Below are positions 2,592 to 21,339 of a stretch of 64,000 bases of DNA, one piece after another. The position numbers and the translations under genes are program-made. The notes below the pieces were generated by a model. It had not been told where the DNA came from. It ran no database searches and worked only from the letters and a program-made list of their open reading frames with translations. Each line of letters starts with the position of its first letter. Positions within the stretch are counted from its first letter, which is position 1. Source of the stretch: Vicinamibacterales bacterium (lineage in GTDB: Bacteria; Acidobacteriota; Vicinamibacteria; Vicinamibacterales; UBA8438); NCBI GenBank assembly GCA_965229825.1, contig CBDDJQ010000010.1, positions 159,417 to 223,416 of the forward strand. The letters run 5' to 3'.

Positions 2592-3400
2592 CCAGCAAGC
2601 GTTCGGCGGCGAGCGATCGCCGGCGGCGCGCTATGACGGGCACCTCCGGACGGCGTACGTGGGCTTCGACGGGCGGCTGAGCGAGCGCTGGCTGGCTGGC
2701 GTGGCCGTGTCGCGCAGCCGCGGGGACGGCGACTGGACCTTCGGTTCGTCGGCCGGCCGGCTGACGACGACCCTGACGTCGGTCCGTATCTGCGGTGGTC
2801 GGACGGCGGTACGACGATCTGGGCCACGGCCGGCAGCGGCCACGGGTCGGCGGAGAACGAGCGGGTGCGGTACGGGCTGCAGGAGGAGAGCGCCCTCGGG
2901 CTGCGGCTGGGCCTGGTGGAGGTGCGCCGGCGGCTGGCGACGGTCGGCGGCGGCGTGGAGCTGCAGCTCCGCGGCGACGCGTCATGGGCGCGGCTGACGA
3001 CCGCCGCGGGCGACGAGCTGATCGACGCGCTCGGGGTGGACGTGCACCAGTTGCGTGTCGGGATCGACGTGAGCCGCACGGTGCGCACCGCGGGCGGGAC
3101 GCTGGTGGAGCCGTTCGGCGAAGTCCATGCGCGGCGCGACGGCGGCTCGGGCCAGACCGGCGCCGGCCTGGAGGTGGCCGGCGGACTACGGGTGGCGCGT
3201 GGCGTGTTCCGCGTCGAAGGCATGGGCCGGCTGCTGGCGCTGCACGCGGCCGACGGCTACCGGGAGCACGGCGGCGCCGTGACGCTGAGCGTGGGTGACG
3301 GCGCGCGGCAGCCGGGCCTGACGCTCTCGCTCTCGCCGCGCTGGGGCGCGCGGGCGACGGCCAGCGACGCCCGCGGCGATCGGCGGCGGGGCCGCCATCG
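2582..3400 (+). pseudogene. Autotransporter (type Va) beta-barrel translocator domain belonging to the upstream adhesin. It is split over three frames by at least two frameshifts.
   Basis: Reading across the G-run at about 2581-2586 gives WTVWG-QHDQQAFGGERSPAARYDGHLRTAYVGFDGRLSERWLAGVAVSRSRGDGDW. A second shift near 2785-2790 gives ...TSV/PYLRWSDGGTTIWATAGSGHGSAENERVRYGLQEESALGLRLGLVEVRR...LSLSPRWGA. The pattern of alternating beta-strands is classic for an autotransporter beta-domain. The 3' end is uncertain. Confidence 0.6.
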
Positions 3401-3439
3401 TCATCAGCACGACGAACGAGTGGACGGGGCTGGGCCTCC

Positions 3440-3960
3440 GGGTGGCCGAGACCCAGGCCCAGCGGGAGGCCCCAGCCACAGGCCCTCCCGGAGGGCACAG
3501 GGCCCTCGAGGGCCCTGGCGGACCGGAGAGGGCCCAAGGCAGGGGAGGCCCGGGGCCCTGGACGGGCTGGACGAGCCCCACGCCGCTGAGCTCGAGAGCC
3601 TACGGCGAGCTGAGCGGAGCGAAGCCCTGACCGCCCTCGCGGGGCTAAAAGCGGCCGGCGTGTGTTGGCGGCAATGGCCTGGTACATGGCCACGGGCGGC
3701 GGCCTGATCAGAGCACCGGCAACATCCCTCGTCACGGACAGCCTCACCGGCACAGCCCCGGCCAAGCCCGGGAGAACACCTGCTGACACAAGCCGGGGCC
3801 ACGGCCCATCCACGAGGTCGACGAGCCAGCCCGAAGCCCCCCCGAGGCCGCAAAACGGGGCGACAGACCCCCAGGGCCCTGCGGCCCCGGGACAGGGCCC
3901 TACCCCCAGGGCCCTAGGGCCCAAGAGGGCCCTGACCCCCCCGGTCCAGGGGCCTGGGAC
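3440..3960. repeat. Non-coding stretch densely populated with the palindrome GGGCCC, mostly as AGGGCCCT
   Basis: I count nine GGGCCC sites by eye. Four lie in 3496-3560 and five in 3872-3935, for example cccagggccctgcggccccgggacagggccctacccccagggccctagggcccaagagggccctgacc. Confidence 0.7.
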
Positions 3961-4282
3961 CGGTCATCCGCCCGAGAGGCGTGAAGCGAAGAAAAAACGA
4001 ATTTCGGGTCCCTGCGGGGACCCACCTTGGATGTCCCCGACGCCGAGACCAATCATGGAGCATGAAGCACAGAGTTTCGATCGGCGCGCGTTCCTGCTGG
4101 AAATGGGTGCCTACGACGGGGTGACTATGGCGTAACCCCCTTTATGGGACCCTCGGGCGGGCGGGACCCGGATCTTGCATTGCCCGGCCGCGATGTAAAA
4201 CCTTCTACTAACATGTCCAAAGACATGCGCGCTCTGAATCGTCCCAACCCACACGAGCGCAACGGGTTGACCGGGATCTAGG

Positions 4283-4776
4283 ATGCCCCCCAAGCCCCGA
4301 TGGCTCCTCGCCATACCCGACGCCATCAGCCAGCTCGAAAAGCTCGACCGGACCCTCCTCACCCGCCGCGACATCGAGCGGCTCTTCGGCGTCTCGACCG
4401 CCCGGGCGGCGACCCTCATGCAGACCTTCGGCGCCGAGATGACCGGCTACCAGAGAACGCTGCCCCGGACGAAGCTCCTCCGCCAGCTCCGGAAACACCG
4501 GGCCCGGGCCGCCTTCCGCGGGGAAAGAGGAACGGCGGGCGCGGCTGGCGGCCGAGCTCCAGAAGGCCCGGCCTGACCGGGATCCGAGTGACCGTTCCCG
4601 TAGAGGCGCGGGGCGGCTCGCCAGCCTGCCCGAGGGCGTCTCGGTCGCGCGGGACCGGATCGAAGTACGTTGGGGCGAAGGAGGCCGTCGCGCGGCTCTT
4701 CGCCCTGGCCCAGGTCCTGACCAACGACTACGACCGCTTCGAAACGCTCGTCGGCAGGGAAGAGGTGTCCGAATGA
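4283..4776 (+). pseudogene. Hypothetical protein gene upstream of the integrase, frameshifted
   Basis: The N-terminal part (MPPKPRWLLAIPDAISQLEKLDRTLLTRRDIERLFG...) is in one frame. The plausible C-terminus (...AKEAVARLFALAQVLTNDYDRFETLVGREEVSE) is in another. The stop overlaps the integrase ATG (ATGA at 4773-4776). Confidence 0.5.
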
Positions 4777-5310
4777 GCGAAGCCCTGGTTCCGGAGTACT
4801 CCGGGCCGCCAGTCACGCGCAGGGGAGAGACCGCGGCCGTCGTGCTGCCGCAGCTGATCGTCGACGCCGGGCCGGCCGCCGTCGAACGGTTTCTGGAGTT
4901 CTTCGCGGCGGGGATCGCGAACGGGAGGACGCGGGCGGCGTACGGGCGGGCCGTGGGCCGTTTCTGGCGTGGTGCGAGGCGCGAGGCCTCGGCCTGGGCT
5001 CAGTCTCGCCGCTCCACGTCGCCGCCTACATTCGGAGATCGGTCCCCACGGTGAAGCAGCACCTGGCGGCGATCCGCATGCTGTGCGACTGGCTCGTCGT
5101 CAGCCAGGTCCTCCCCGCGAACCCGGCCTCGGCCGTCCGGGGGCCGAAGTACGTTGTCACCAAGGGCTCGACGCCGGTCCTCGCGCCGGCCGAAGCGCGG
5201 AAAGCTCCTCGACTGCATCCGACACCGGCTCTCTGGCCGTGGCTCCGAGACCGGGCCCTCCTCAGCGTCATGCCAGCTTCGCGCGGGTGAGCGCGGTCCT
5301 GGGGATGAGA
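4773..5310 (+). pseudogene. Tyrosine recombinase/integrase remnant. Only the N-terminal SAM-like domain and the start of the catalytic domain remain, with multiple frameshifts and a truncation.
   Basis: Stitched across frames the sequence reads ...FLEFFAAGIANGRTRAAYGRAVGRF/LAWCEARGLGLGSVSPLHVAAYIRRSVPTVKQHLAAIRMLCDWLVVSQVLPANPASAVRGPKYVVTKGSTPVLAPAEAR/KLLDCI/DTGSLA/LRDRALLSVM/..SFARVSAVLGMRR. No R..HxxR..Y catalytic residues follow. Confidence 0.75.
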
Positions 5311-5465
5311 CGGTCCCGCCAGGACAAAGCAGGGGTTCCCGAGGGTGCCCAAGGCGCAACGGTCGCTCCGGTAGAATGGCAGGCCTCAGTCCCCGAGAGC
5401 CGAACCAAGAATCGGCCCGGACGCGGCCAGCCAGGCTAAGAAGCAACTCGACGCAATGAGGTGGC

Positions 5466-8400
5466 ATGACGCTTGAGACGCGGAGTCCGAACTTGTCTCC
5501 TGGCGCCGTGGTCCGAGGACCGCTGCTCCCCGAGCCCGTCGAGGTCATCACCGCGATTCCGATGGGCGAATCGGTCAAGCTCATCGCGAAGGGTCTGAAG
5601 ACCGGCAGGGTTCACGACCCAATCCTGAACGCGGACCAGCTTGCACAGCTCACGGTCTCCCCGGCCACCGAGCCTTTCGACGGGGATGCTGTCCGCTTCC
5701 GGCTCGGCATCGAGGCCGAACGCCTGGGACTCGCCTACGAGTATGACCCCTATTTCTCGCTCTCGATCGCGCGAGTGGACCCGCTGCCCCACCAGCTCGA
5801 GGCGGTCTACGAGTACTTCCTCCCGCTCCCGCGCATCCGCTTCCTGCTCGCCGACGACCCTGGCGCCGGCAAGACGATCATGGCTGGGCTGCTCCTTAAG
5901 GAGCTCAAGATCCGCGGTCTCGTCCAGCGCACGCTGATCGTTGCGCCCGCGAACCTCACGTTCCAGTGGCAGCGGGAGATGAAGGACAAGTTCCGGGAAA
6001 CCTTCGAGGTGATGCGCGGCGAGATCCTCCGAAGCCAGTACGGCCAGAACCCCTGGCAGGAGAAGAACCAGGTCGTGACCTCGGTGTCGTGGATCTCGCG
6101 GATCGAGGACGCCAAGGAGAGCCTGCTCCGCAGCCGCTGGGATCTCGTCATCGTGGACGAGGCCCACAAGATGAGTGCCTACAGCCACGAGAAGAAGACG
6201 CTCGCCTTCCAGCTCGGCGAGGCGCTTTCCGAGCGCACCGACCACTACCTGCTAATGACGGCGACGCCCCACAAGGGCGACCCGGAGAACTTCCGCCTGT
6301 TTCTCTCGCTCCTCGACCGCGACGTCTACGGCGACGTGAAGAGCCTCGAGGAGGCGATGCGCCGGCACGAGGCGCCCTTCTACCTGCGCCGGACCAAGGA
6401 GGCGCTCGTCAGCTTCCCCGACGAGCAGGGCAACGTCCACCCGCTCTTCACCAACCGCGACGTCCGTACGGCCAAGTTCGACCTCGACGGCGAGGAGTAC
6501 GACTTCTACGACGCCCTCACGCGCTACGTCGAGGACCAGTCGATGAAGGCAGCCGCAAGCGACTCGCCGCAGGCCCGCGCCCTCGGCTTCATCATGGCAA
6601 TGCTGCAGCGGCGCTTCGCCTCCAGCGTTTACGCCGTGCGCCGCAGCCTCGAGCGCATGCGCGAGAAGCGGGAGAAGATCCTCGAGGATCCGGAGAAGTA
6701 CCGCCGCGAGCAGATCGAGCGCAGGCTGCCCGACGACTTCGACGACCTGACCGAAGAAGAGCAGGACGAGATCCGCGACCGGCTCGAAGGCGTCGTCGTC
6801 TCGATCGACCCGGCGGCGCTGCGCGACGAGATCCAACGCCTCGCGAAGCTCATTGAGCGCGCCAAGACCCTCGAGGCACGGGAGGTCGAGTCGAAGCTCG
6901 CCAAGCTACGTGAGGTGCTGAACGAGCAGAACATCTTCGGCGACCAGCGCATGAAGCTGCTCGTGTTCACTGAGCACAAGGACACGCTCGACTACCTCGC
7001 CGGCGACGGCAGGGACGGGCGCCCGCTCGGAAAACTCCGGGAGTGGGGCCTCACCGTCACGCAGATCCACGGTGGCATGAAGATCGGCGACCGGGACAGG
7101 CCCGGCACCCGCATCCATGCCGAGCGCGAGTTCCGCGAAGACGCCCAGGTCCTGGTGGCGACCGAGGCCGCGGGCGAGGGGATCAACCTCCAGTTCTGCT
7201 GGTTCATGATCAACTACGACATCCCCTGGAACCCGGTGCGGCTTGAGCAGCGCATGGGCCGCATCCACCGCTATGGCCAGACCCACGACTGCCTGATTTT
7301 CAACTTCGTGGCGGTGAACACGCGCGAGGGACGCGTGCTGCAGAAGCTCCTGGCGCGCCTGCTGGAGATTAAGAACGAGCTCGGCACGGACAAGGTCTTC
7401 GACGTGGTCGGTGAAGTCTTCCCGTCGAACCTCCTGGAGAAGCTGTTCCGCGAGATGTACGCCCAGAGGCTCTCTGCACCGAGCATCGAAGAGCGTATCG
7501 TCCGCGAGATCAACCCCGAACGCTTCCGCGCGATCACGGAATCCACGCTGGAGGGACTCGCGAAGCGCGAGCTGAATCTTGGCACCCTGATCGGCAAGTC
7601 TGCCGAATCCAAAGAGCGCCGGCTCGTTCCCGAGGTCATCGAGGACTTCTTCGTCGCCGCCGGGCCGGTCGCCGGCGTGCATCCGGCCGCCCAGCGAGGA
7701 AGCCCGCATGTCTATCGCATCGGCAAGGTGCCCAGCACCCTCGTCACCCTCGGCGAAAGGCTGGAGCCGCGGTTTGGCCGGCTCGGCAAGACCTACCAAC
7801 GCATCACATTCGACAAGGCTCGCCTCGGCGATGACCAGACCCTGGAATGGGTGACACCGGGCCATCCGCTCTTTGAGGTCGTTCGCGCCGACCTCCGCGA
7901 GAGAGTGGGCGACGATCTGCAGCGCGGGGCGGTCTTCTTCGACCTGCATTCCGGCGAGCCTTATCGGGTCGACGTCTTTGGCGCCTCCATCAAGGACGGC
8001 CGAGGCCTCACGCTGCACCGCCGGCTGTTCGTGATGCGCGCCGACGCCGCCGGCACGCTCTCCGTGCGCCAGCCTACGCTGCTCCTCGATGTGATCCCCG
8101 CCCCTAAGGGCACGGCTGTGCCGGCGGCGCCTGGCTTGCCCGACCGCCAAGCCGTCGAGCTGGCGCTCGTAACCCGAGCGCTCGAGCCCTTCCTCGCCGA
8201 GGTCTCCGAGCAGCGCGCACGAGAGAACCAAGTCGTCCGAGAGCACATCGAGATCTCGCTCGGCGAACTGACCCACCGCCAGAATCTCCAGCTCGCCGAC
8301 TTCGTCTCGAAGCAGCAGGCCGGGGACACGACCCCGGGGCTCGCCGGCAACATCGCACAGGCGGAGCAGCACCTCGACGAGCTGAACCGGCGCCTCGAGA

Positions 8401-8909
8401 CTCGGCGCGAGCAGCTCCAGATGGAGCGGCACTGCACGATCGGCGACATCGCGCACCTCGGCCGCACGTGGGTGCTGCCGCACCCCGACCGCACAAGCCC
8501 CGGCATCGCGCCGATGGTGCGCGACGAGGAGATTGAGCGGATCGCGGTTCACGAGGCGTTCAAGCACGAGGAGGCTCGCGGCTGGGTCGCCGAGAGCGTC
8601 GAGTCCGAGAACCGGGGCTTCGATCTGATTTCCCGCAAGCCGCACGCGCACGACCCGAAGACCTTCGTCGAGGTCCGCTTCATCGAGGTCAAGGGCCGCG
8701 CTGGTGTCGCCGAGGTCGCCCTGAGCGCGAACGAATACAAGACCGCTCGGCGGCTCGGCGCCGACTATTGGCTCTATGTCGTCTACAACTGCGCCGAGAC
8801 GCCCGAGCTCCACGTAATCCACGAGCCCGCCCGGCTCGGCTGGAAGCCGGTCGTGCGGGTAGAGCACTACCATCTCGGGGCGACTGAGATCTTGAGAGGG
8901 CGCCGATGA
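5466..8909 (+). CDS. SNF2/DEAH-family helicase with a C-terminal DUF3883-type, restriction-endonuclease-like domain (HmaA-like)
   Basis: Helicase motifs present: LADDPGAGKT (I), VIVDEAHKM (II), LLMTATPHKG (III), VLVATEAAGEGINLQ (V), PWNPVRLEQRMGRIHRYGQ (VI). The C-terminus reads ENRGFDLISRK...FIEVKGR...YWLYVVYNC, a D...E-x-K type motif. The SD GAGGTG precedes the ATG. Confidence 0.9.
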   Translation: MTLETRSPNLSPGAVVRGPLLPEPVEVITAIPMGESVKLIAKGLKTGRVHDPILNADQLAQLTVSPATEPFDGDAVRFRLGIEAERLGLAYEYDPYFSLSIARVDPLPHQLEAVYEYFLPLPRIRFLLADDPGAGKTIMAGLLLKELKIRGLVQRTLIVAPANLTFQWQREMKDKFRETFEVMRGEILRSQYGQNPWQEKNQVVTSVSWISRIEDAKESLLRSRWDLVIVDEAHKMSAYSHEKKTLAFQLGEALSERTDHYLLMTATPHKGDPENFRLFLSLLDRDVYGDVKSLEEAMRRHEAPFYLRRTKEALVSFPDEQGNVHPLFTNRDVRTAKFDLDGEEYDFYDALTRYVEDQSMKAAASDSPQARALGFIMAMLQRRFASSVYAVRRSLERMREKREKILEDPEKYRREQIERRLPDDFDDLTEEEQDEIRDRLEGVVVSIDPAALRDEIQRLAKLIERAKTLEAREVESKLAKLREVLNEQNIFGDQRMKLLVFTEHKDTLDYLAGDGRDGRPLGKLREWGLTVTQIHGGMKIGDRDRPGTRIHAEREFREDAQVLVATEAAGEGINLQFCWFMINYDIPWNPVRLEQRMGRIHRYGQTHDCLIFNFVAVNTREGRVLQKLLARLLEIKNELGTDKVFDVVGEVFPSNLLEKLFREMYAQRLSAPSIEERIVREINPERFRAITESTLEGLAKRELNLGTLIGKSAESKERRLVPEVIEDFFVAAGPVAGVHPAAQRGSPHVYRIGKVPSTLVTLGERLEPRFGRLGKTYQRITFDKARLGDDQTLEWVTPGHPLFEVVRADLRERVGDDLQRGAVFFDLHSGEPYRVDVFGASIKDGRGLTLHRRLFVMRADAAGTLSVRQPTLLLDVIPAPKGTAVPAAPGLPDRQAVELALVTRALEPFLAEVSEQRARENQVVREHIEISLGELTHRQNLQLADFVSKQQAGDTTPGLAGNIAQAEQHLDELNRRLETRREQLQMERHCTIGDIAHLGRTWVLPHPDRTSPGIAPMVRDEEIERIAVHEAFKHEEARGWVAESVESENRGFDLISRKPHAHDPKTFVEVRFIEVKGRAGVAEVALSANEYKTARRLGADYWLYVVYNCAETPELHVIHEPARLGWKPVVRVEHYHLGATEILRGRR

Positions 8910-11872
8910 GTCACGAGAGGCGATACCCGCGGCGTCTGATCGAGGTGGACCTGCCGATCAAGGAGATCTCGGCGCACGCGCGACGGGAGAAATCGATCCG
9001 GCACGGGCACATCTCGACGCTGCACATCTGGTGGGCCAGGCGGCCGCTGGCGGCGTGCCGGGCGGTGCTCTGCGCAGCGCTCTGGCCCGATCCGGCCGAT
9101 CCGCTCTGCCCGGAGTGCTTCCGCAAGGAGGCAGCCGAGGCGATGCGGGCTTGGCGCGACCGGCGCGGCGGGAAAGCGCGCGACTGGGCGAAGCCAGTGA
9201 ACGTGCGCGAGGCGCTGCTTGCGTTCATCGCGGAGTTCGCAAACTGGGACAACTCAACCGACAAGAGCTTCCTCGAGACCGCGCGGCATCTCACCCAGGC
9301 GGCGCATGAGTCGCTCGGTGGAGTGCCAGGGACGCGGCCGCTCGTCGTGGACCCGTTCGCCGGCGGAGGGGCGATCCCGCTTGAGGCGCTGCGCATCGGG
9401 GCCGACGCATACGCCTCGGACCTCAACCCCGTCGCGGTGCTGCTCAATAAGGTCGTGCTCGAATACATCCCGAAGCACGGCTCGCGGCTGGCTGAGGAGG
9501 TGCGGCGCCGGGGCGCGTGGGTGAAGGAGCAGGCGGAAGCGGAGCTCGGCCGGTTCTATCCCAAGGACGCCGACGGCGCGGGGCCGATCGCGTATCTCTG
9601 GGCGCGGACGATCCGCTGCGAGGGGCCGGGGTGCGGGGCCGAGGTGCCGCTCGTGCGCTCGTTGTGGCTGTCGAAGAAGCGGGGGCAGAGCGTCGGCATG
9701 CGGCTCGTGCCGCGCAGGGATCGGAGCGGCGTCGAGGTGGAGATCGTCGAGAACCCGAAGGTCGCCGAGGCCAACCAGGGCACGGTGCGCCGCGGCTCGG
9801 CGACCTGTCCGTGCTGCGGCTACACGACGCCCGTGGCCTCGGTCCGCACGCAATTCAAGGCGCGCCGGGGCGGCGCAGCCGATGCGAAGCTTCTGTGCGT
9901 GGTGACGACCCGTGCCGGGCAGCGGGGGCGTTCCTACCGGCTGCAGGAGGAGCGGGATCTGGCGGCGGTGCGGGCGGCGGCCGAGGAACTAGCGCAACGA
10001 GAACGGCACCATAGCGACCGCCTGTCCCTAGTGCCGAACGAAAAGATCTCCCTCAACGAGATTCGGCGTATCAGCGCTCCCATCTACGGCATGACGACGT
10101 GGGGCGACGTATTCAGCCCCCGCCAGTTGCTGGCGCTCGCGGCGCTGGCGCGGCTGGTGCGAGAGGCGGGCGAGCGGTGTCGCACGGAGTGCGACGCAGC
10201 CTTGGCCGAGGCGGTGGCGACGTGTCTGGCGCTGGTGGTGGACCGGCAGGCCAACGCAGCCACATCCCTTTCCCGTTGGCACATTGCTGGAGAGAAGATT
10301 GAAGGTGTCTTCGCTCGTCAAGCAATTCCTATGGTGTGGGACTTCGCCGAGGCGAACCCTTTTTCCGACGCAACGGGCGACTTCTCAGGCGCCCTCGAGT
10401 GGGTCGCCAAGGTCTGCGAGGCCAACGTACCGACCACCACGGTCCCGGGCCACGCCCAGCTCGCCTCCGCCACGGTGCACCCGCTGCCTGACGATGCTGC
10501 CCACGCCTTCGTCACCGACCCGCCCTACTACGACGCCGTACCATACGCGTACCTTTCGGACTTCTTCTACGTCTGGCTACGGCGCACACTCGGAAGCACG
10601 TTTCCGGCGCTGTTTCCGGGCGAGTCTGTGCCCAAAGACGAGGAGATTGTGGTCGATCGACCGCACGAGCTTTCCACGTCGACCAAAGACATCGCCTTCT
10701 ACGAGGCGAATCTTCAGCGCGCGTTCGCGGATGGCCGCCGAGTGCTCATGCCAGAGGGCATCGGAACGATCGTTTTCGCCAGCAAGACGACGGCTTCCTG
10801 GGAGGCGATCCTCCAGGCGATGGTCGACGCAGGATGGGTCATTACGGCGTCGTGGCCTATCGACACGGAGATGGCTTCAAAGGTTGCAGCCATCGGCCAA
10901 GCCCGCCTGATGTCCTCTGTCCACCTCGTCTGCCGCCCGCGAGAGAACCCCGGCGGCTCGCTGCGCGAGGACGCCGTCGGCGACTGGCGGGCGGTGCTGC
11001 GCGAGCTGCCCGAGCGTATCCACGCCTGGATGCCGCGCCTCGCCAGGGAAGGCGTCGTCGGCGCCGACGCGATCTTCGCCTGCCTCGGCCCCGCACTGGA
11101 GATCTTCTCCCGCTACTCCCGCGTCGAAAAGGCCTCGGGCGAGGGCGTCGAGCTGCGGGATTACCTGGAGCAGGTCTGGGCCGTGGTGGCCCGCGAGGCG
11201 CTCTCGATGATCTTCGAGGACGCCGACGCGACGGGCCTCGAAGAGGACGCGCGCCTCACGGCCATGTGGCTGTGGACGCTCTCGACGAGCGCGAACGGCG
11301 GGAGCGGCACATCGAGCGCTGCTGGTGGGGACGAGGAAGGAGGCGACGCGGGCGACGACAAAGTGGAGAGCGCCCCGAAAGCCAAGACGGGTGCGGGGTT
11401 CACGCTCGAGTTCGACGCCGCGCGCAAGATCGCCCAGGGGCTCGGCGCCCACCTTGAGGACCTCGGCCGCGTGGTCGAGATCAAGGGCGGCCAAGCACGG
11501 CTCCTCTCCGTCGCCGAGCGGACCCGGCACCTCTTCGGCAAGGACACCGAGCGAGCGCCAGCCAGGCGCGTGAAGAAACAGCAGCTTATGCTGTTCGAGG
11601 AGCTGGAGGCGGCCGAGAAGGACGCCAGCTGGGGCGACGTCGGTCTGCCGCCAGCCGGCGAGACCACCCTCGACCGCGTGCACCAGGCCATGGTCCTCTT
11701 CGCCGCGGGCCGGAGCGAGGCACTCAAGCGCTTCCTGGTCCAGGAGGGCATCGGCCGCGACACGCGCTTCTGGAAGCTCGCACAGTCGCTCTCGGCGCTC
11801 TACCCGATCGGCACCGACGAGAAGCGCTGGGTCGACGGCGTGGTGGCGCGCAAGAAGGGATTGGGGTTCTGA
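8906..11872 (+). CDS. DUF1156-domain DNA methyltransferase with a Zn-ribbon (N6-adenine or N4-cytosine type; HmaB-like, DrmMI-like)
   Basis: The N-terminus RRLIEVDLPIKEISAHARREKSIRHGHISTLHIWWARRPLAACRA is the DUF1156 signature. The AdoMet motif is VVDPFAGGGAIPLEA, the catalytic motif is FVTDPPYYD, and the Zn-ribbon is CEGPGCGAEVPL...CPCCGY. The start overlaps the helicase stop (ATGA). Confidence 0.9.
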   Translation: MSHERRYPRRLIEVDLPIKEISAHARREKSIRHGHISTLHIWWARRPLAACRAVLCAALWPDPADPLCPECFRKEAAEAMRAWRDRRGGKARDWAKPVNVREALLAFIAEFANWDNSTDKSFLETARHLTQAAHESLGGVPGTRPLVVDPFAGGGAIPLEALRIGADAYASDLNPVAVLLNKVVLEYIPKHGSRLAEEVRRRGAWVKEQAEAELGRFYPKDADGAGPIAYLWARTIRCEGPGCGAEVPLVRSLWLSKKRGQSVGMRLVPRRDRSGVEVEIVENPKVAEANQGTVRRGSATCPCCGYTTPVASVRTQFKARRGGAADAKLLCVVTTRAGQRGRSYRLQEERDLAAVRAAAEELAQRERHHSDRLSLVPNEKISLNEIRRISAPIYGMTTWGDVFSPRQLLALAALARLVREAGERCRTECDAALAEAVATCLALVVDRQANAATSLSRWHIAGEKIEGVFARQAIPMVWDFAEANPFSDATGDFSGALEWVAKVCEANVPTTTVPGHAQLASATVHPLPDDAAHAFVTDPPYYDAVPYAYLSDFFYVWLRRTLGSTFPALFPGESVPKDEEIVVDRPHELSTSTKDIAFYEANLQRAFADGRRVLMPEGIGTIVFASKTTASWEAILQAMVDAGWVITASWPIDTEMASKVAAIGQARLMSSVHLVCRPRENPGGSLREDAVGDWRAVLRELPERIHAWMPRLAREGVVGADAIFACLGPALEIFSRYSRVEKASGEGVELRDYLEQVWAVVAREALSMIFEDADATGLEEDARLTAMWLWTLSTSANGGSGTSSAAGGDEEGGDAGDDKVESAPKAKTGAGFTLEFDAARKIAQGLGAHLEDLGRVVEIKGGQARLLSVAERTRHLFGKDTERAPARRVKKQQLMLFEELEAAEKDASWGDVGLPPAGETTLDRVHQAMVLFAAGRSEALKRFLVQEGIGRDTRFWKLAQSLSALYPIGTDEKRWVDGVVARKKGLGF

Positions 11873-12468
11873 TGGCGGTGGACGCGCGCAAGTGGACCCG
11901 GTCGCTGTACGCGACGCTCGACGGCGGCCGCGCAACCACAGCCGAGCTGCGCCAGGCTTCGGTCGCTGGGGACCTCACTCGCTGGACGCAGGCCCTCACG
12001 GGTCTCGTGGCCCAGTCGCTGCGTGGCCTCGAGCTGGAAGTGGCGGCCAAGGGCCACCGGTGTACGGCACTGCCGGTGGAGCGGGAGGAGTATCTCGCCC
12101 TCGACGTGACCGCTTTCCCGGACACTGGAAGCGCTTGGCGTTTCCCGGTCGCCGTCTGCGAGCTCGAGAACTCGGCCCGCGACGAGGTGGTTGCGTACGC
12201 GCTCTGGAAGGTGCTCTGCATCCGGCACGCACTGCGGGTGGTTTTCTGCTACCGGAGCGCGCGCACCGATGCACCGAGGCTCATCGGGTTGCTCTCCGAC
12301 CGAGTGGTCGGCGCGATGGCGCTTCCGGATCGTGAACGACTGAGCGCCGACACGCTCGTGTTCGTCGGATCGCGCAGCGAGTCGGACACGTTCCCGTACG
12401 GCTTCTTTCAGGCTTGGTGCCTGAATCGGAACCTCGGCCGATTCGAGACCTTCAGGTGGCAGGAATAG
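11872..12468 (+). CDS. Hypothetical 198-aa protein embedded in the helicase-methylase-ATPase operon
   Basis: The ORF start overlaps the methylase stop (TGATG at 11870-11874). It sits on the same strand and ends 18 nt before the DUF499 gene. I recognise no family. A weak nuclease-like pattern is present: YLALDV...VAVCELENS...YALWK. Confidence 0.6.
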   Translation: MAVDARKWTRSLYATLDGGRATTAELRQASVAGDLTRWTQALTGLVAQSLRGLELEVAAKGHRCTALPVEREEYLALDVTAFPDTGSAWRFPVAVCELENSARDEVVAYALWKVLCIRHALRVVFCYRSARTDAPRLIGLLSDRVVGAMALPDRERLSADTLVFVGSRSESDTFPYGFFQAWCLNRNLGRFETFRWQE

Positions 12469-12486
12469 TCTGAGAGGAAGCACGCG

Positions 12487-15276
12487 ATGGCATTGAAACC
12501 CTGGTACAAGGTCGTGACACCACGCGAGGACCTGCGCGAGGGGCGGCCGCTCGACGCCTCGGAGTTCGCGGTCCACCTGGACCAGGTGCGCGAGGGGCGG
12601 GCGCCGGCGGTCTATCAGCAGCCGGCCGACTTCTTCGAGCGCACCTACCTCACCAAGAACCTAGCAGGCCTCGCCGCCGAGGTCATCCGCCGGCTCTCCG
12701 GGATCAAGGTCGCGACCTCCGCGGTCTTCAACATGACCACCCAGTTCGGCGGCGGAAAGACGCACGCGCTGACGCTCCTCTACCACCTTGCGCGGGGCGG
12801 ACCGGAGGCCGCCGGGTGGAAGGGCGTGCGGACGCTTCTCGAGATGGCCGGCGTGACTGAGATCCCCCGGGCCGCCATGGCGGTATTCGTCGGCACCGAG
12901 TTCGACTCCATCGCGGGCCGGGGCGGCGCGGACGGCACGCCCGTCCGCAAGACCCCCTGGGGCGAGATCGCCTGGCAGCTCGGCGGGGCGGAGGGACTCC
13001 GCGTCGTGGCAGAGCACGACGCGTCGCTCACGGCACCTGGTGGAGACGTCGTCGCGCGGATTCTGCCCGCGGATCGGCCCGTGCTGATCCTGCTCGACGA
13101 GCTAATGAACTACGTAAGCCGCAGTCGCAAGAGCGGCCTCGGCGGCCAGCTGTACAACTTCCTCCACAACCTGTCCGAGGTCGCCCGCTCGCGCGACAAC
13201 GTGGTGCTCGCCGTCTCGATTCCAGCATCGGAGCTCGAGATGACGGCCGAGGACCAGTCCGACTACGAGCGCCTCAAGAAGCTCCTCGACCGGCTCGGCA
13301 AATCGGTGATCATGTCGGTCGAGGCGGAGACGTCGGAGATCATCCGGCGTCGGCTCTTCGAGTGGCACGGCCTGCCCGCGGACGCTTCGAAGACCGTCGG
13401 CGAGTACGCGGAGTGGATGACCGCGCACCGGCACCAGCTTCCGAGCTGGTTCCCCGTGGACAACGCCCGCGAGGCCCTGGCGGCGAGCTATCCCTTCCAC
13501 CCGTCGGTGCTCTCGGTCTTCGAGCGTAAGTGGCAGGTGCTTCCACGCTTCCAGCAGACCCGCGGGACCCTGCGGCTCCTTGCCCTGTGGGTCTCGCATG
13601 CCTACGTCGAAGGCTTCAAGGGCGCCCACAAGGACCCGCTGATCACGCTCGGCACGGTACCCCTCGACAATCCGACGTTCCGGGCGGCGGTGTTCGAGCA
13701 GCTCGGCGAGTCGCGCCTCGAAGGGGCGGTGACGACCGACATCGTCGGCAAGGAGTACGCGCACGCGCTGCGCCTCGACAAGGAGGCGACAGCCGAGGTC
13801 AAGAAGGCTCGCCTTCACCGCAAGGTGGCGACGGCGATCTTCTTCGAGTCGAACGGCGGCCAGCAGCGCGGCGAGGCAACGCTACCCGAGGTTCGGCTCG
13901 CAGTGGCCGCGCCCGACCTCGACATCGGGAACGTCGAGCAGAGCCTCGAGGCGCTGGCGGACACTTGCTACTTTCTCTCGGCCGAGAAGAACCGCTACCG
14001 ATTCAGCTTCCAGCCGAACCTCAACAAGCTCCTCGCCGATCGGCGTGCGAGCGTCCCTACGAACGCGACCCGCGACCGGGTACGCGCCGAGATCCAGAAG
14101 GTCTTCGCGGCCGCCAAGGGCGTCGACCGCATCTACTTCCCGGAGCGCCCGAACCAGCTGCCCGACCGCGCGGCACTCACGCTCGTCGTGCTTGCGCCGG
14201 AGAACGAAGCCGGCCCGGCCACGACACACCTCATGGAAACGATGGCGCGCGAGCACGGCTCGTCGTCGAGGACCTACAAGAGCGCGCTACTTTGGTGCGT
14301 GGCCGAGAACGGCGCGCTACTCCCCGACGAAGCGCGCAAGGTGCTCGCCTGGGAGGACATCGACGCCGAGTCGGAGACGCTCCGGATCGACGAATCGCAG
14401 CGCCGCCAGCTCGACGAGAACTTGAGGCGCGCTAAGCGGGACCTCCGGGAGGCTGTCTGGCGCACCTATAAGAACGTCTTCCTCCTCGACGACACGAACG
14501 CGCTCCACAGAATCGACCTCGGCCTCGTGCACTCGAGCGCCGCGGAGTCGCTCGTGGGCCTGATCCTCGACCGCCTCCAACAGGAAGACCTCGTCGTCGA
14601 TGGCGTGAGCCCGAACTTTCTGGTCCGGAACTGGCCTCCGGCACTCCCGGAGTGGAGCACCAAGGCCGTCCGTGACGCCTTCTTCGCCTCCCCGAAGTTC
14701 CCGCGGCTGCTGAATGCCGACGCGGTCAAGCAGACCATCTGCCGTGGCGTCGAAGCTGGCATGATGGCCTACGTCGTAAAGGAGACGAGCGGCAAGTACG
14801 ACCCGTTCATGTATCGCGAGTCCCTCAGTGAGGCCGACCTCGAGGTCGCCGACGATGTTTTCCTGATCTCGAAGGAAGCCGCCAACGCGTACATCGAGGG
14901 TCGGGTGGCCAGCGAGGACGGCCAGCCGTCTGTTTCCTCTCCAGACCAGCCCAAGCAGCCTGGGGGCGAACCACGCGAGGCCGGCATCACGGGTGGATCT
15001 ACATCCGTGCCGCCAGCCGGGACGACGCCGGATGTTGTGCCCGGTTTCCGCTGGACCGGGAGCCTTGCGCCGCAGAAGTGGATGAACTTCTACACGAAGG
15101 TCCTGGCCCGCTTAGCCGACGCCAAGGGGCTCACGCTCTCGCTGACCGTCGACGTTCAGCCCGAGAGCGGTATCTCGAAGGCCAAGGTCACGGAGATGAA
15201 GGTCGCACTAAGAGAACTCGGGATGTCAGAGGACGTGCACATCGGCGACACTCACGATTCCGGGCGCACGGAGTGA
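12487..15276 (+). CDS. DUF499-family P-loop ATPase (HmaC-like)
   Basis: The N-terminus ALKPWYKVVTPREDLREGRPLDASEFAVHLDQV is typical of DUF499. Walker A is TQFGGGKTHAL and Walker B is VLILLDELMNY. The SD GAGAGGAAG lies upstream. Confidence 0.9.
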   Translation: MALKPWYKVVTPREDLREGRPLDASEFAVHLDQVREGRAPAVYQQPADFFERTYLTKNLAGLAAEVIRRLSGIKVATSAVFNMTTQFGGGKTHALTLLYHLARGGPEAAGWKGVRTLLEMAGVTEIPRAAMAVFVGTEFDSIAGRGGADGTPVRKTPWGEIAWQLGGAEGLRVVAEHDASLTAPGGDVVARILPADRPVLILLDELMNYVSRSRKSGLGGQLYNFLHNLSEVARSRDNVVLAVSIPASELEMTAEDQSDYERLKKLLDRLGKSVIMSVEAETSEIIRRRLFEWHGLPADASKTVGEYAEWMTAHRHQLPSWFPVDNAREALAASYPFHPSVLSVFERKWQVLPRFQQTRGTLRLLALWVSHAYVEGFKGAHKDPLITLGTVPLDNPTFRAAVFEQLGESRLEGAVTTDIVGKEYAHALRLDKEATAEVKKARLHRKVATAIFFESNGGQQRGEATLPEVRLAVAAPDLDIGNVEQSLEALADTCYFLSAEKNRYRFSFQPNLNKLLADRRASVPTNATRDRVRAEIQKVFAAAKGVDRIYFPERPNQLPDRAALTLVVLAPENEAGPATTHLMETMAREHGSSSRTYKSALLWCVAENGALLPDEARKVLAWEDIDAESETLRIDESQRRQLDENLRRAKRDLREAVWRTYKNVFLLDDTNALHRIDLGLVHSSAAESLVGLILDRLQQEDLVVDGVSPNFLVRNWPPALPEWSTKAVRDAFFASPKFPRLLNADAVKQTICRGVEAGMMAYVVKETSGKYDPFMYRESLSEADLEVADDVFLISKEAANAYIEGRVASEDGQPSVSSPDQPKQPGGEPREAGITGGSTSVPPAGTTPDVVPGFRWTGSLAPQKWMNFYTKVLARLADAKGLTLSLTVDVQPESGISKAKVTEMKVALRELGMSEDVHIGDTHDSGRTE

Positions 15277-15299
15277 ATCGTGGATAGCGCTATAAAGCT

Positions 15300-17494
15300 C
15301 CGCCGGAACCACCCGGGAACGTGTCCGAACGTCGGGTCACTTCCGCGCTTAGGACAAGTGTCCCGCGCGGAGGCCCGCAGCGCATGACTGACAACATCCG
15401 AGGTCTTCGGTTAGCGGGTCGTGGCGAGAAAATCCACGAAAAGGTGTGCAGGTACGGCGGGCGTGTGCCGATACGTGAAGTATGGCGCGCAAGAGCGATG
15501 ACCGCGGCGGTTCGAAGGGTCCTGGGCCTCAGCGAGACCCTCGGGACGTGCGCATCGAGCGCCTCGAACGAGACAAGGCGAAGCTGATCGAGGAGCGGGA
15601 TCACTGGAAGCGCCGCAGCGAGCATCTGGAGAAGGAGCTCGAGGCGGCGCGGCGCGCCGGCCGCCGACAAGCGGCCCCCTTCGCCAAGGACCGTCCGCAG
15701 GGACGCGGCGGGCGTCCCGGGCGGCGAGCCGGGGCGGAGTACGGCAGGCAGGGGCGCCGCCGGCCGCCGACGCAGGCTGACGAGACCCACGTGGCGCCGG
15801 CCCCGACGAGCTGTCCGGACTGCGGCGGCGCGGTCGCGCTGGACCGTGTGGCGTCGCAGTATCAGGAAGACCTGCCCGAGGTGCGTCCCCTCGTGCGGCG
15901 CTTCGACATCGAGGTGGGCCACTGCTCGCAGTGTCAGCGGCGCGTGCAGGGCCGGCACGCGCTGCAGACCTCCGACGCGTTGGGCGCGGCTGCCGCTCAA
16001 CTGGGCCCGAACGTCGCCGCGCTGGTCGTCGAGTTGCACACCGAGCTGGGCATGCCGCTGGAGAAGGTCGTCCGCGTTCTGCGGACGCAGTTCGGACTGT
16101 CGGTGACCAAGGGCGGCCTGGTCCAACTGCTGCACCGCACCGCCGACGCGGCGGCGCCCGCGTATGCGGCGCTGCGCGAGCAGGTCCGCTGCAGTCCGGT
16201 GGTCACGCCGGATGAGACCGGCTGGCGGGTGAACGCGATCCTCCACTGGCTGTGGGCGTTCGCCACCCCGGAGACGACGGTCTATGCCATCTGCGACGGC
16301 CGGGGGTTCGCCGAGGCGGCGGCGGTTCTCGGCCCCGACTTCGCCGGCGTGCTGGTGCGGGACGGGTGGGTGGCCTATCGCGGCTTCAAGAAGGCGCCGC
16401 ATCAAACGTGCCTGGCCCACCTCTTGAGACGGTGCAAGGACTTGCAGGCCGCTCATCCCGACAGCCCGTGGGCGGGCGCGGTGCAGGCGGTCCTGCGGGA
16501 CGGCCTCGCCCTGCGGACCCGCTCGAACGCGGGCGAAATCAGTGAGCACGGTCTGGCGTCGGCCCGCGGTCGGCTCGCCGCCCGGCTCGGCCGGCTGATC
16601 GACACCGCGCCGCCGTTGGCCGCCGCCGAGCGCTTCGCCAAGCACTTGGCCAACGAATTCCCGGCGGTGTTCCTCTTCTTGTGCGACCCGTCGATCGACG
16701 CCACCAACTGGCGGGCCGAACAGGCCATCCGACCCGCAGTGGTCACGCGTAAGGTCTGCGGCGGCAACCGCACCCGGCGCGGGGCCGACACCCAGCAGGT
16801 GCTGGCCAGCGTCGTGCGTACCGCCCGCCAACGCAACCTCGACCCGCGCTCGCTGATCACGACGATGCTGTGCGCCCCCGAACCCGTCGTGCCCGAAGCG
16901 CTTGCGTTGCCGCCGCCCGCCTGACGCCGGGCGGCGTGGAAACCGCTCATCCGCTTCCCGTCCTCCTGCGCGCCCCCGGCCCGCACTCAATCCGCGCCGT
17001 CCCGCCGCCGCCCGAGCCCGCGACCCGTGGGTTTCGCCGCCAGCGGCGGGAACGCCACCAGGCAGCTCGCCGCTGTTCGCGGCGTCGGTCCCCGCCGCGT
17101 GTCCCTCATGGCGGCGGCGCCGTCGCCGGGACCCGCGTGGTCTCGCGCCGCCGCGGGGGACCGGGGCGCCGCGGAGCCGCCAGACCCAGCGCTCCGCGAG
17201 CGAACCAGCCGGACCGACCGTCGCTGCCGATGACGCGCCGACAAGCTGCCTTGGCGACAATGGGACTGCGAGTCTGCCATGGGCGCTCTCAACAGCGACA
17301 TGCTCTGCACAGGTCCGCCGGCCGGCGAGTCGCCCCTCGTGCCCCTCGTTTCCGGCCTCCTCACAGCCACAGAGACCGACGCTGCGATGCCGACAAATCT
17401 GCGCGGGGACAACCTCGTCATGCAGCAACTTCCCCGACGGCTCGGTTCATTTCCGCCCATTTCCACTGGAGAAAATCAGTCCCGCACCCGGTAA
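15300..17494 (+). mobile_element. IS66-family insertion sequence. The ends are not resolved; the limits are set by the flanking gene ends.
   Basis: It contains a single IS66-type transposase. It fills the whole gap between the DUF499 stop (15276) and the start-less caspase ORF (17495). Only a weak candidate inverted-repeat pair is seen (about 15303-15328 versus about 17476-17500). Confidence 0.4.
15482..16924 (+). CDS. IS66-family transposase
   Basis: It has a coiled-coil N-terminus and a zinc finger (CPDCGG...CSQCQRR). The DDE region reads VVTPDETGWRVNAILHWLWAFATPETTVY...VLVRDGWVAYRGF...HQTCLAHLLR. Confidence 0.9.
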   Translation: MARKSDDRGGSKGPGPQRDPRDVRIERLERDKAKLIEERDHWKRRSEHLEKELEAARRAGRRQAAPFAKDRPQGRGGRPGRRAGAEYGRQGRRRPPTQADETHVAPAPTSCPDCGGAVALDRVASQYQEDLPEVRPLVRRFDIEVGHCSQCQRRVQGRHALQTSDALGAAAAQLGPNVAALVVELHTELGMPLEKVVRVLRTQFGLSVTKGGLVQLLHRTADAAAPAYAALREQVRCSPVVTPDETGWRVNAILHWLWAFATPETTVYAICDGRGFAEAAAVLGPDFAGVLVRDGWVAYRGFKKAPHQTCLAHLLRRCKDLQAAHPDSPWAGAVQAVLRDGLALRTRSNAGEISEHGLASARGRLAARLGRLIDTAPPLAAAERFAKHLANEFPAVFLFLCDPSIDATNWRAEQAIRPAVVTRKVCGGNRTRRGADTQQVLASVVRTARQRNLDPRSLITTMLCAPEPVVPEALALPPPA

Positions 17495-18050
17495 CCGAAT
17501 ACCATCCGAGCTACAGGATCACGACGCGCTCGTGCCCTCATCGTGGGAGTGTGCGAGTACGCCAACGCAAGTTCCTTAGAGTTCAGCGTAGCCGATGCAC
17601 AGGACGTCGCTGAGGTGTTGATGTTCGAGGAGTATGGCTTCACCGTCGAGACCTTATTCGACGAGCAAGCGACGCGGCCGCGGCTTCTTAAAGCACTGCA
17701 TGAACTGCTAAATAGTGACGCCGATAACCTGCTATTCTACTTCTCGGGCCACGGGGCCGCACCCCCCTACGGCCCGTACCTCTGCACGACGGACGCCAGT
17801 CCCGACGACCTTGGAATAGATTTAGCGTTCCTCGCCAGGCTCGTTAGCGCCCGCGCGCGACCAGGACGGACAACGACTATCGTTTTGGATTGCTGTCATG
17901 CGGGCGCGATGACTTTCGCCACCGCACAGGGCGCGACGCCGTTGCTGCGGCCGCCGGAAGTCACTAACTCATTCATTTCACTTCCAGACGGCAATGTGTT
18001 GTTTGCCGCGTGTCGACCCGATGAGGCTGCGTATGAATGTACGGGATTAG
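17495..18050 (+). pseudogene. Caspase-like (peptidase C14/orthocaspase) domain. This is the 5' segment of a caspase-kinase fusion gene. No usable start codon lies before GTG 17543, and the segment is interrupted at 18050 by IS1380.
   Basis: The sequence reads RALIVGVCEYANASSLEF...DNLLFYFSGHGAA (catalytic His) ...TTIVLDCCHAG (catalytic Cys) ...LFAACRPDEAAYE. G+C is lower than in the flanking DNA. Confidence 0.8.
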
Positions 18051-19743: not shown

Positions 19744-21339
19744 TTAGGGCACAGCATATTCTCCTTTCACCTTCTTGAGGCGCTGATTGGGAACGCCGCA
19801 AACGAGGAAGGGCAAGTAACTGCATCCAGTCTGCACGACTACCTATCCAGGTCACTTCAAGGGCACGCCATGGCGCAGACGATGGTGTACCGAGGGGATA
19901 TTGCCGGCGTGTTTCTGATTGGCGCAGGGTTCGCCCCGGTGCGGCGTGCGCCAGCCAGCGGGACACGATTGCATGCTATTGTGCGCGACGCACAGGAGCA
20001 CCTGAACACGTTTCAGATGGAGACCGGTCGCGACTATGCCAATAGACAAGTGTGGTCGCGCACAGCCTACAAGGCTGCATGTCAGCGCCTGCGACCGATT
20101 GTTGCGTGGTTCGGCAAGAGAGAGAGTGAGTACCTGGAGCTAAAGAATCACAAGCCGTTTCAGATCTTAATGGATGAGATACGTGCTTGGCAGGCGCGAC
20201 TGGGCGATATCGAGAATGTCTCCGAAACCCCGTGGGGCACCGTTGAACGACGTCTTGGGTACGGAACGTTCGGAACCGTGTGGCTTTTTCAGGGTAAACC
20301 TGGCGGTAGCGAAATAGCTCGGAGAGCGTTCAAGATATATCACGGTCAGGACATACGCCTGCGTGACAAAGTGAGTCGCTTCCGCCGTGGCTTTGAAGCA
20401 ATGAAGATGCTAGATCATCCACTGGTGGTCAAGGTCGGAGAACTATATGAGTGCCCGCTGGGTTTTTCCATGGAGTACATCGATGGACCTAACTTTAGAG
20501 AGTTCACGGGAACACTCGATGTTCCAGAACAGTTACGCCTCCTCCTGACGGTTGCGGAAACGATTGCGCATGCCCACAGTAGAGGTGTGGTGCATCGAGA
20601 CGTCAAACCCGAGAACATCCTGCTCCAAGAAACCAACGGCATCTGGCTGGCGCACCTTGCCGACTTTGACTTGGCGTGGTTTTCGACGGCGAGTATGGTT
20701 ACAAGAGAAGCGATAGGTAGCGCATTCTATTGCGCACCTGAGCAGGTTCACAGGCCGCGCTCGCCGATGGCGCGAGACCCGCGGGTGGACCAGTACGCAT
20801 TCGGTCAGCTACTATTTTTTGGGCTTACAGGGTCTGATCCACTCCAGAGCGCTGCGGACAACATGGATGAGTTGCGCGGCCGCCTACGCCAATGGGGCTC
20901 GGGCGATGCAGCGAGTGCAGTGTTGCGGCTATACGAGCGCGCAACCGCACTACGGCAAGGCGAGCGGTACTCAACTGTACGGGAAATCTGCGATGAGCTT
21001 CACAGAATTATATTACTTGCGGAGACGGATCCAGCCCAGGAGATATCGACGGAACGAATGATTAGGGAGTTGGTATTCGGACTTGTGGGAATAGCAGACT
21101 CCGCGGCCCGCAGCACAGGGGCATTTCGGTCATTGTCTGAAAGGACTATGGTGGGTGTTCAAACCGTAACAACCGGACCACACAAATTGTCCCTGCGCTT
21201 TCGGTTAGAACGCATTGGTGCGTTGACGATGGAGGGTCTTGACAATAGGATGGCCCGCCGAAGGCTCAATACGCGCGTTGATGAGGTGGTGCGCGAGTTT
21301 CCTAATACAACCCGGGAATCGGGGCGGCAGGGAACATAT
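19744..21339 (+). pseudogene. 3' segment of the caspase-kinase fusion: the caspase p10-like end, a linker, a Hanks-type Ser/Thr protein kinase domain and a C-terminal region. It abuts or is cut by ISL3 at 21340.
   Basis: It is in frame with 17543-18050 once the IS and one TTAG copy are removed (...YECTGL|GHSIFSFHLLEALIGNAANEEGQVTASSLHDYL). Kinase motifs: GYGTFGTVW, AFKIY, HRDVKPENILL, DFDLAW, YCAPEQ. The track ORF 19870..21441 runs into the IS inverted repeat. Confidence 0.85.

Follow-up and report, generated by a model that had tools for sequence, protein, structure and literature searches.

The stretch of DNA analysed here, which will be referred to as the window, comprises 64,000 nucleotides (nt) of contig CBDDJQ010000010.1 (positions 159,417 to 223,416) from the Vicinamibacterales bacterium assembly GCA_965229825.1. 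It contains a set of four co-oriented genes, hmaA, hmaB, orfX and hmaC (Table 1). Three of them encode the helicase-nuclease, the methylase and the ATPase of the anti-phage system Hma (helicase-methylase-ATPase), and the fourth, orfX, encodes a conserved protein of a family that has remained without annotation. The genes are closely linked. Reading the sequence directly, the hmaA stop and the hmaB start share ATGA (8906-8909), the hmaB stop and the orfX start share TGATG (11870-11874), and the 18-nt spacer between orfX and hmaC contains GAGAGGAAG ahead of the hmaC ATG at 12487. A first-pass annotation of the sequence had described four tightly coupled open reading frames (ORFs) with these two overlaps and an 18-nt gap carrying a Shine-Dalgarno sequence, and its coordinates were exactly reproduced.

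Table 1. Features of the window at and around the hma operon (positions in the window; aa, amino acids).
Feature	Position	Strand	Description
hmaA	5466-8909	+	1147 aa; SNF2/DEAH translocase with C-terminal PD-(D/E)xK (NOV_C/DUF3883) nuclease domain
hmaB	8906-11872	+	988 aa; DUF1156 N6-adenine-type DNA methyltransferase with Zn-finger insert
orfX	11872-12468	+	198 aa; conserved protein, family without annotation, Hma-exclusive accessory
hmaC	12487-15276	+	929 aa; DUF499 STAND/ORC-like AAA+ ATPase
Conserved leader upstream of cassette	5357-5465	+	presumed promoter and ribosome-binding site region; similarity to related Hma loci begins at 5357
Big_9/cadherin-repeat surface-type protein	15-2591		at least 7 Ig-like repeats; runs off left end of window
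IS66-family element	15399-17506		transposase 15482-16921; imperfect terminal inverted repeats; 122 nt past hmaC stop
Caspase-domain (Peptidase_C14) ORF	17543-18457		Pfam match
IS4-like DDE_Tnp_1_4 transposase	18261-19637	-	
Ser/Thr protein kinase	19870-21438		
ISL3 transposase	21348-22754	-	

Nucleotide similarity to more than 40 other loci was limited to positions 5357-15292, that is, to the operon with 109 nt on its 5′ side and 16 nt on its 3′ side. The cassette is a discrete module. Neither a sigma-70 promoter nor an intrinsic terminator was found for the operon above the shuffled expectation, the leader region showing no match to the sigma-70 consensus; searches for direct or inverted repeats bordering the cassette gave chance-level matches only, and no tRNA attachment site was found beside it.

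Profile searches against Pfam, NCBIfam and PADLOC upheld the earlier proposal that the locus belongs to Hma, with an SNF2 helicase-nuclease, a DUF1156 methylase and a DUF499 ATPase. HmaA matched the PADLOC profile PDLC00659 with 3.2e-190 and 632.7 bits (protein residues 10-1108 on profile positions 7-1132 of 1176), HmaB matched PDLC00661 over its full length (7.1e-137), and residues 1-893 of HmaC matched positions 1-912 of 941 in PDLC00662 (8.8e-128). Pfam identified SNF2-rel_dom, Helicase_C and NOV_C (the former DUF3883; 2.3e-19) in HmaA, DUF1156 in HmaB (3e-22) and DUF499 in HmaC (6e-23). Matches in NCBIfam were all sub-threshold, to DISARM DrmD and to the DUF1156 and DUF499 'anti-phage-associated' models of the PLD-helicase system; the PLD_Helicase and phospholipD_antiphage profiles aligned with the helicase core alone.

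The motifs of the three proteins gave the same picture. HmaA carries GAGKT at residue 133, DEAH at 231, RIHRYGQ at 599, GFDL at 1051 and EVK at 1074; in HmaB, FAGGG (motif I) is located at 151, DPPY (motif IV) at 538 and CxxC cysteine pairs at 68 and 301; and HmaC contains a Walker A motif, GGGKT, at 88 and a Walker B motif, LILLDE, at 200. The nuclease tetrad of HmaA (D1053, E1074, K1076 and E1090) is intact and was invariant in 61 relatives. Consistent with these data, the first-pass annotation had recognised SNF2/DEAH motifs and a DUF3883-type GFDL/EVK tail in the helicase, a DUF1156 region, a Zn-ribbon, FAGGG and DPPY in the methylase, and a P-loop ATPase of the DUF499 type with GGGKT and LLDE in the last gene.

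PADLOC defines an Hma system by one HmaA, one HmaB and one HmaC on the same strand, without pseudogenes and with at most three embedded genes between neighbours; the embedding criteria are given in the methods of a preprint (bioRxiv 10.1101/2024.01.29.577857). At the present locus the three genes are uninterrupted ORFs on the plus strand, with no embedded gene at the hmaA-hmaB junction and a single one at the hmaB-hmaC junction. The ATPase, methylase and helicase of Hma are homologues of BrxC, BrxX and BrxHII, and the system has been renamed 'Type-1 BREX-related (BR) system', for which a restriction-modification (R-M)-like model of sensing, modification and restriction was proposed (Rakesh and Krishnan, NAR 2026, PMC12839542). 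In the same scheme, Type-2 BR combines an HKD helicase with DUF3780 and Type-3 BR combines PglZ with an inactive STAND protein, and the features of Type-1 BR include an N-terminal TUDOR and an internal inactive restriction endonuclease domain in the helicase and a C-terminal RRM in the ATPase (PMC12839542). The window's locus has intact active residues in the C-terminal PD-(D/E)xK domain and no PLD or PglZ Pfam match in operon or flanks, and OrfX, the orfX product, is not a DUF3780 protein. It shares with Hma / Type-1 BR the three core genes on one strand, the full-length profile matches and the intact motifs, and its DUF499 ATPase is without a HEPN fusion. Judged by these matches and motifs, the window encodes an intact, non-HEPN representative of Hma / Type-1 BR, a system that had been described before.

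The name Hma goes back to Payne et al. 2021, who based it on 1,638 three-gene operons from 26 phyla (PMC8565338). The first-pass annotation had called it mechanistically uncharacterised, with no biochemical mechanism, which is no longer correct. In E. coli, HmaA of Halomonas meridiana by itself reduces plaquing of phage T4; this defence requires R610 of helicase motif VI and the PD-(D/E)xK tetrad D1084/E1104/K1106/E1121, and the C-terminal domain by itself introduces nicks into supercoiled plasmid in the presence of Mn2+ (Liu et al. 2024, PMC11232893). In the same study, about 66% of hma loci contained inserted genes, and the authors did not succeed in demonstrating that HmaB acts in an R-M-like way (PMC11232893). 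Embedding has also been surveyed: genes were found embedded in 931 of 1,485 Hma systems (62.7%) and used to find new defence genes, seven of the nine Hma-embedded candidates (HECs) tested defending alone (Payne et al., bioRxiv 10.1101/2024.01.29.577857). Hma has, in addition, been placed among the BREX-related, R-M-like systems (PMC12839542). With Hma/Type-1 BR on record from over 2,000 taxa and an effector that has been tested, the present locus contributes little as a defence system.

The Halomonas protein and HmaA of the window agree in domain architecture and in helicase motifs I and VI, and the tetrad D1084/E1104/K1106/E1121 of the former corresponds to D1053/E1074/K1076/E1090 when matched by motif (GFD, EVK and the NEY helix). 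The earlier suggestion that the DUF3883 tail of the helicase is the nuclease effector agrees with the mutagenesis and the nicking activity of this homologue (PMC11232893) and with the intact tetrad found here. The loci differ in their additional genes. In Halomonas, Septu is embedded at the hmaA-hmaB junction and an AAA_21 pair at the hmaB-hmaC junction; in the window, the first of these junctions is free of inserts and the second holds orfX.

The difference from the Hma system as described is the extra gene between hmaB and hmaC, although embedding itself is already known. Unlike typical embedded cargo, orfX is Hma-exclusive, co-diverges with HmaA and HmaC, and belongs to a family outside PADLOC-DB v2, Pfam, NCBIfam and PHROGs. 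When 185,579 species-representative genomes were searched for peptide patterns of orfX, 41 loci were obtained. They were distributed over Acidobacteriota, Gemmatimonadota, Myxococcota, Planctomycetota, Nitrospirota, Verrucomicrobiota, Pseudomonadota and Actinomycetota and, among the archaea, Methanothrix and Methanoperedens; cyanobacteria were added by a plasmid search. Each of the 41 loci with sufficient flanking sequence sits within an Hma operon, and no orfX outside such an operon was seen among these and 21 metagenome loci.

The position of orfX within the operon is equally constrained. In 46 of 52 non-redundant loci its stop lies 4-45 nt upstream of the hmaC start, with a median gap of 16 nt over all 52, and its start overlaps or abuts the hmaB stop in 33/44 loci. 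Where extra cargo was present, it was located in the hmaB-orfX interval in 11 loci as compared to six for the orfX-hmaC interval. Mantel tests showed co-divergence with the core proteins, with r = 0.80 for OrfX and HmaC and r = 0.79 for OrfX and HmaA (each 0/2000 permutations), the value for HmaA and HmaC being 0.84. Its constant place, its translational coupling, its confinement to Hma and its joint divergence with HmaA and HmaC are arguments for a gene that functions together with the Hma proteins and against a free-standing defence gene.

A homologue search found 662 relatives of orfX in bacteria and archaea, with a near-constant length of 193-205 aa, and an exhaustive HMMER scan gave 392 representatives after clustering at 50% identity. 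An alignment of 33 sequences contained 36 invariant columns. In a 48-sequence alignment reaching down to 22% identity, W38, D78, W89, W112 and K113 were still invariant and E73, E97 and E99 were conserved to at least 90%. Conservation on the coding strand spans sequences from 70% GC, as in the window, to low-GC cyanobacterial plasmids, and we regard orfX as a genuine conserved gene. All RefSeq members are listed as 'hypothetical protein', for example, WP_012098802.1 (Anaeromyxobacter) and WP_254175249.1 (Planktothrix). Nothing meaningful was obtained from Pfam (33 members, E<=10), NCBIfam, PADLOC or PHROGs, profiles run against PDB sequences gave chance matches only, and a search of the literature yielded no relevant mention of a fourth Hma gene under a name such as 'HmaD'. 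Five RefSeq orfX accessions did not occur in the accessible part of the supplement tables of the preprint on Hma embedding.

An AlphaFold2 model of OrfX was obtained with a predicted local distance difference score (pLDDT) of 89.5 and a predicted template modelling score (pTM) of 0.90. It consists of three N-terminal helices followed by strand-strand-strand-helix-strand-helix-helix-strand-strand-strand. The predicted core (helix 35-51, strands 55-59, 79-83 and 94-99, helix 104-115 and strand 121-128) is compatible, in order only, with the alpha-beta-beta-beta-alpha-beta arrangement. Of the conserved residues, D78 stands ahead of predicted strand 2, strand 3 bears E97-x-E99 and the next helix K113, a glutamate taking the position of the canonical lysine. 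Glutamate in place of the canonical lysine of the PD-(D/E)xK signature is a variant that occurs in BamHI. From the model we infer that this layout would fit a restriction-endonuclease-like core with glutamate for the canonical lysine, and OrfX is possibly a divergent nuclease-fold protein. Apparent domain fusions were rejected as hints of function, the longer 'homologues' being frameshifted or chimeric gene calls.

Two known systems place a small protein in a comparable context. Type-2 BR, which we take to be the 'RL' system of Gao et al. 2020, also has four genes (DUF499, DUF3780, DUF1156 and a PLD/HKD helicase), and there the gene for DUF3780, a protein of 195 aa, lies between those for the ATPase and the methylase and overlaps its neighbours at the stop and start codons. 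DUF3780 is an analogue of OrfX in position and size, without detectable homology. In contrast to Type-2 BR, the helicase of the window has no HKD/PLD domain and carries a C-terminal PD-(D/E)xK, and whereas DUF3780 is found in 98% of Type-2 loci, orfX is found in about 30% of its clade. The second likeness is to the inactive STAND (iSTAND) proteins BrxB/BrxF of BREX, as here too a gene for a protein of ~200 aa lies directly upstream of a BrxC-like ATPase gene. However, OrfX gave no DUF1788 match even at E<=10, and compared with the beta-alpha-beta P-loop order by which iSTAND proteins are described, the model shows three consecutive strands without intervening helices after the N-terminal helical bundle.

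The hmaB-hmaC junction is an insertion hotspot. In five sister metagenomic loci it houses GmrSD, Schlafen/AlbA_2+HATPase_c_4 (twice), YhcG PDDEXK and DUF3800, and elsewhere ORFs without a Pfam match, for example, one of 191 aa with an N-terminal hydrophobic, possibly membrane-spanning stretch (locus L056). Plasmid2 of Planktothrix agardhii NIES-204 carries three consecutive genes for proteins of ~200 aa at this junction instead of orfX (L045, 7128-8953); one matched HSDR_N, one Uma2, and the third had no Pfam match but a visible D...EAK motif. Many related loci, including those most similar to the cassette of the window, contain ~1.5 kb of extra DNA between hmaA and hmaB (L002, 5401-6390, with a PRTase-CE gene; L003, about 5591-7056). 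Since the window lacks this insert, with the two genes overlapping, it represents the most compact version of its clade.

HmaB behaved differently from the other proteins. Its distances were nearly uncorrelated with those of HmaC (Mantel, r = 0.19), compared to about 0.8 for HmaA and OrfX. Metagenome-assembled genomes of Vicinamibacterales (Acidobacteriota) share up to 90% DNA identity with hmaA of the window. In two cases with a 90%-identical hmaA (L002/L005 and L003), the central part of hmaB could not be aligned to that of the window. This suggests that the methylase or its target-recognition region is often swapped between cassettes. Decoupled evolution and mosaic replacement are expected of a specificity determinant and support an R-M reading.

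Taken together, we consider it probable, at roughly 75%, that the locus is an intact and self-contained Hma anti-phage cassette with an R-M-like mechanism and with OrfX as an optional, Hma-dependent accessory. In this scheme HmaB, the DUF1156 N6-adenine methyltransferase with a Zn-finger target-recognition insert, would mark host DNA. HmaC, a BrxC-like STAND/ORC-type AAA+ ATPase, might recognise unmarked or foreign DNA and license the effector, by analogy to BrxC. HmaA would translocate by means of its SNF2 motor and nick or cut DNA with its C-terminal PD-(D/E)xK domain, as shown for the Halomonas homologue and as its intact motifs predict here. The weakest step of the scheme is that of OrfX, which we infer to act with HmaC and/or HmaA, either modulating sensing and licensing or serving as a second nuclease-like subunit. 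As the nuclease of HmaA itself is intact in all relatives, OrfX is not a replacement effector. The chances that OrfX is an Hma-dependent modulator or a second nuclease-like subunit acting with HmaC are close to even. A more specific version, in which orfX defines a hitherto unrecognised four-gene Hma/Type-1 BR subtype, its product being a dedicated subunit that has a fold without detectable relatives, binds HmaC and/or HmaA and serves either as an adaptor in licensing or sensing or as a second, BamHI-like D-ExE nuclease, falls a little short of even odds; its role would then be analogous, not homologous, to those of DUF3780 in Type-2 BR and BrxB in BREX.

Several observations weigh against this interpretation. 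Dispensability of orfX was assessed with 80 metagenomic loci picked by HmaC similarity alone (50-76% identity), 70 of which were decidable. In 30 of these hmaB abuts hmaC, in 21 orfX is present and in 19 there are other inserts. Moreover, a neighbour-joining tree of HmaC interleaves orfX-plus clades with orfX-minus lineages, and orfX is missing at the metagenomic locus whose HmaC is most similar to that of the window (76% identity). The idea that orfX is an obligate core gene of its HmaC clade was thus rejected by its finding in just 21/70 decidable loci. This survey of the neighbourhoods of HmaC relatives had been proposed by the first-pass annotation, which regarded the small ORF as part of a four-gene operon; the adjacency is real, yet the patchy presence of the gene indicates an optional, although Hma-exclusive, accessory and not a core subunit.

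Nor do the structural comparisons back a nuclease role of OrfX. Foldseek searches with the model against PDB and BFVD gave no match at E<=1e-3, and the best match was a non-catalytic acetyl-CoA carboxylase domain (E=4e-3, TM score 0.40-0.46). PD-(D/E)xK proteins were matched only at a probability of <=0.38 and E>=0.06, so that the nuclease-fold reading is without statistical support; faint, non-significant matches to NucC, AF1548, EcoT38I, endonuclease I and a phage PD-(D/E)xK nuclease were recurring. Homology to the NOV_C nuclease of HmaA was not detected (hhalign 0.16%), nor was homology to the two small PD-(D/E)xK-motif proteins at the same junction of Planktothrix agardhii plasmid2 (about <=1%) or to DUF3780 (0.2-0.3%, whether a single sequence or an 18-sequence profile was used). 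As regards the mechanism, HmaA alone was sufficient for defence in the one experimental study, and propagating T4 on a host that expressed HmaB gave the phage no protection (PMC11232893), which leaves the R-M logic unproven. Both the Hma function of this locus and the activity of OrfX are predictions from sequence and model.

These points bear on two further explanations. It is rather unlikely that the system is not R-M-like and that HmaA is a stand-alone abortive-infection-type nickase which HmaB, OrfX and HmaC only tune or restrain. Apart from the defence by HmaA alone and the unprotected HmaB-modified T4, such a role would agree with the dormant-like state into which infected cells go and with the lack of hmaB or hmaC at 15-20% of hmaA loci (PMC11232893). 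Methylase, ATPase and helicase-nuclease are nevertheless co-conserved over thousands of taxa, all three being homologous to Type-3 BREX components, and the decoupled HmaB, with its central part containing the target-recognition domain replaced between 90%-identical cassettes, behaves as expected of a specificity determinant. In addition, the published test comprised one heterologous host and one phage, T4, the DNA of which is modified. The main rival to the accessory role of orfX, namely that it is an autonomous embedded defence gene which uses the hmaB-hmaC junction as a landing site and acts independently of Hma, like the HECs of Payne and colleagues, appears unlikely. The commonness of embedded genes (62.7% of Hma systems), the 7/9 tested candidates that defended alone and the known stand-alone effectors at the same junction of sister loci (GmrSD, Schlafen, YhcG PDDEXK, DUF3800, HSDR_N and Uma2) are all in its favour, as is the absence of orfX from about 70% of closely related Hma loci. 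An autonomous gene would, however, be at odds with the lack of any orfX outside Hma in the 41 genome and 21 metagenome loci, with a co-divergence with HmaC and HmaA (r about 0.8) that is unlike swapped cargo, and with the fixed site and short spacing to hmaC kept even beside other cargo; furthermore, no PADLOC v2 model was matched, though according to the preprint these include 145 embedded phage-defence candidates.

The remaining explanations concern the locus as a whole. Three different insertion sequence (IS) transposases within 7.5 kb downstream and an IS66-family insertion 122 nt after hmaC, polymorphic between assemblies, might point to a decaying, non-functional remnant in an IS-ridden region. 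We consider this very unlikely, as the four ORFs are full length, the core three also against their profiles, every catalytic motif is intact, the translational coupling is kept, an independent assembly agrees with the sequence at 100% identity and the IS elements lie outside the operon. Least probable, with only a slight chance, is a variant of DISARM or canonical BREX instead of Hma. HmaA indeed also matched PADLOC DrmD (8.8e-131), BrxHI/BrxHII (1.6e-109) and NCBIfam DISARM_DrmD (7e-106), but the DrmD score (NF038317) of 355.6 is far under the NCBIfam equivalog cut-off of 610 and the HmaA profile scores much higher. Scanning the operon and flanking ORFs revealed no DrmA-, DrmB- (DUF1998), DrmC-, PglZ-, BrxA-, BrxB- or BrxL-type domains, and DISARM membership was rejected on the low DrmD score and the missing Drm domains. 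Membership in the Type-2 BR / DUF3780 system was likewise rejected, given the hhalign value of 0.26% and PLD profiles that reach the helicase core only.

The novelty of the locus lies in orfX, a compact, well-conserved and unannotated family that comparative data link functionally to the DUF499 ATPase and the coupling of sensing to HmaA, which are the least understood parts of Hma. Sister cassettes with and without orfX occur at up to about 76% HmaC identity, and the window holds the minimal four-gene version without other cargo, so that these natural pairs and the minimal version offer a clean genetic handle on the role of the ATPase module. The decoupled evolution of HmaB, in turn, predicts that the methylase sets specificity.

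The first-pass annotation had placed the cassette in a decayed mobile island with an integrase remnant on the left and IS elements on the right, of which only the latter, the IS66, IS4-like and ISL3 elements, were found. The long ORFs of 2500-5470 gave no Pfam match at E<=1, and three integrases gave no tblastn match in the left flank. This flank (about 2600-5460) comprises ~2.8 kb of 68-76% GC with long ORFs on both strands, no recognisable gene and no tRNA. Further left, in the region of the Big_9/cadherin-repeat protein, ORFs of 87 aa recur every 279 nt on the minus strand as mirror images that reflect the repeat period.

On the right, the IS66 element has no counterpart in an ENA metagenome contig (L128) that is 100% identical in all else, indicating a recent, polymorphic insertion that does not disrupt the operon. 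GC falls to about 0.59 at 19-22 kb, and a housekeeping gene for the CCA-adding enzyme follows to the right of the ISL3 transposase. The caspase and kinase genes located between the transposases might be remnants of another conflict system.

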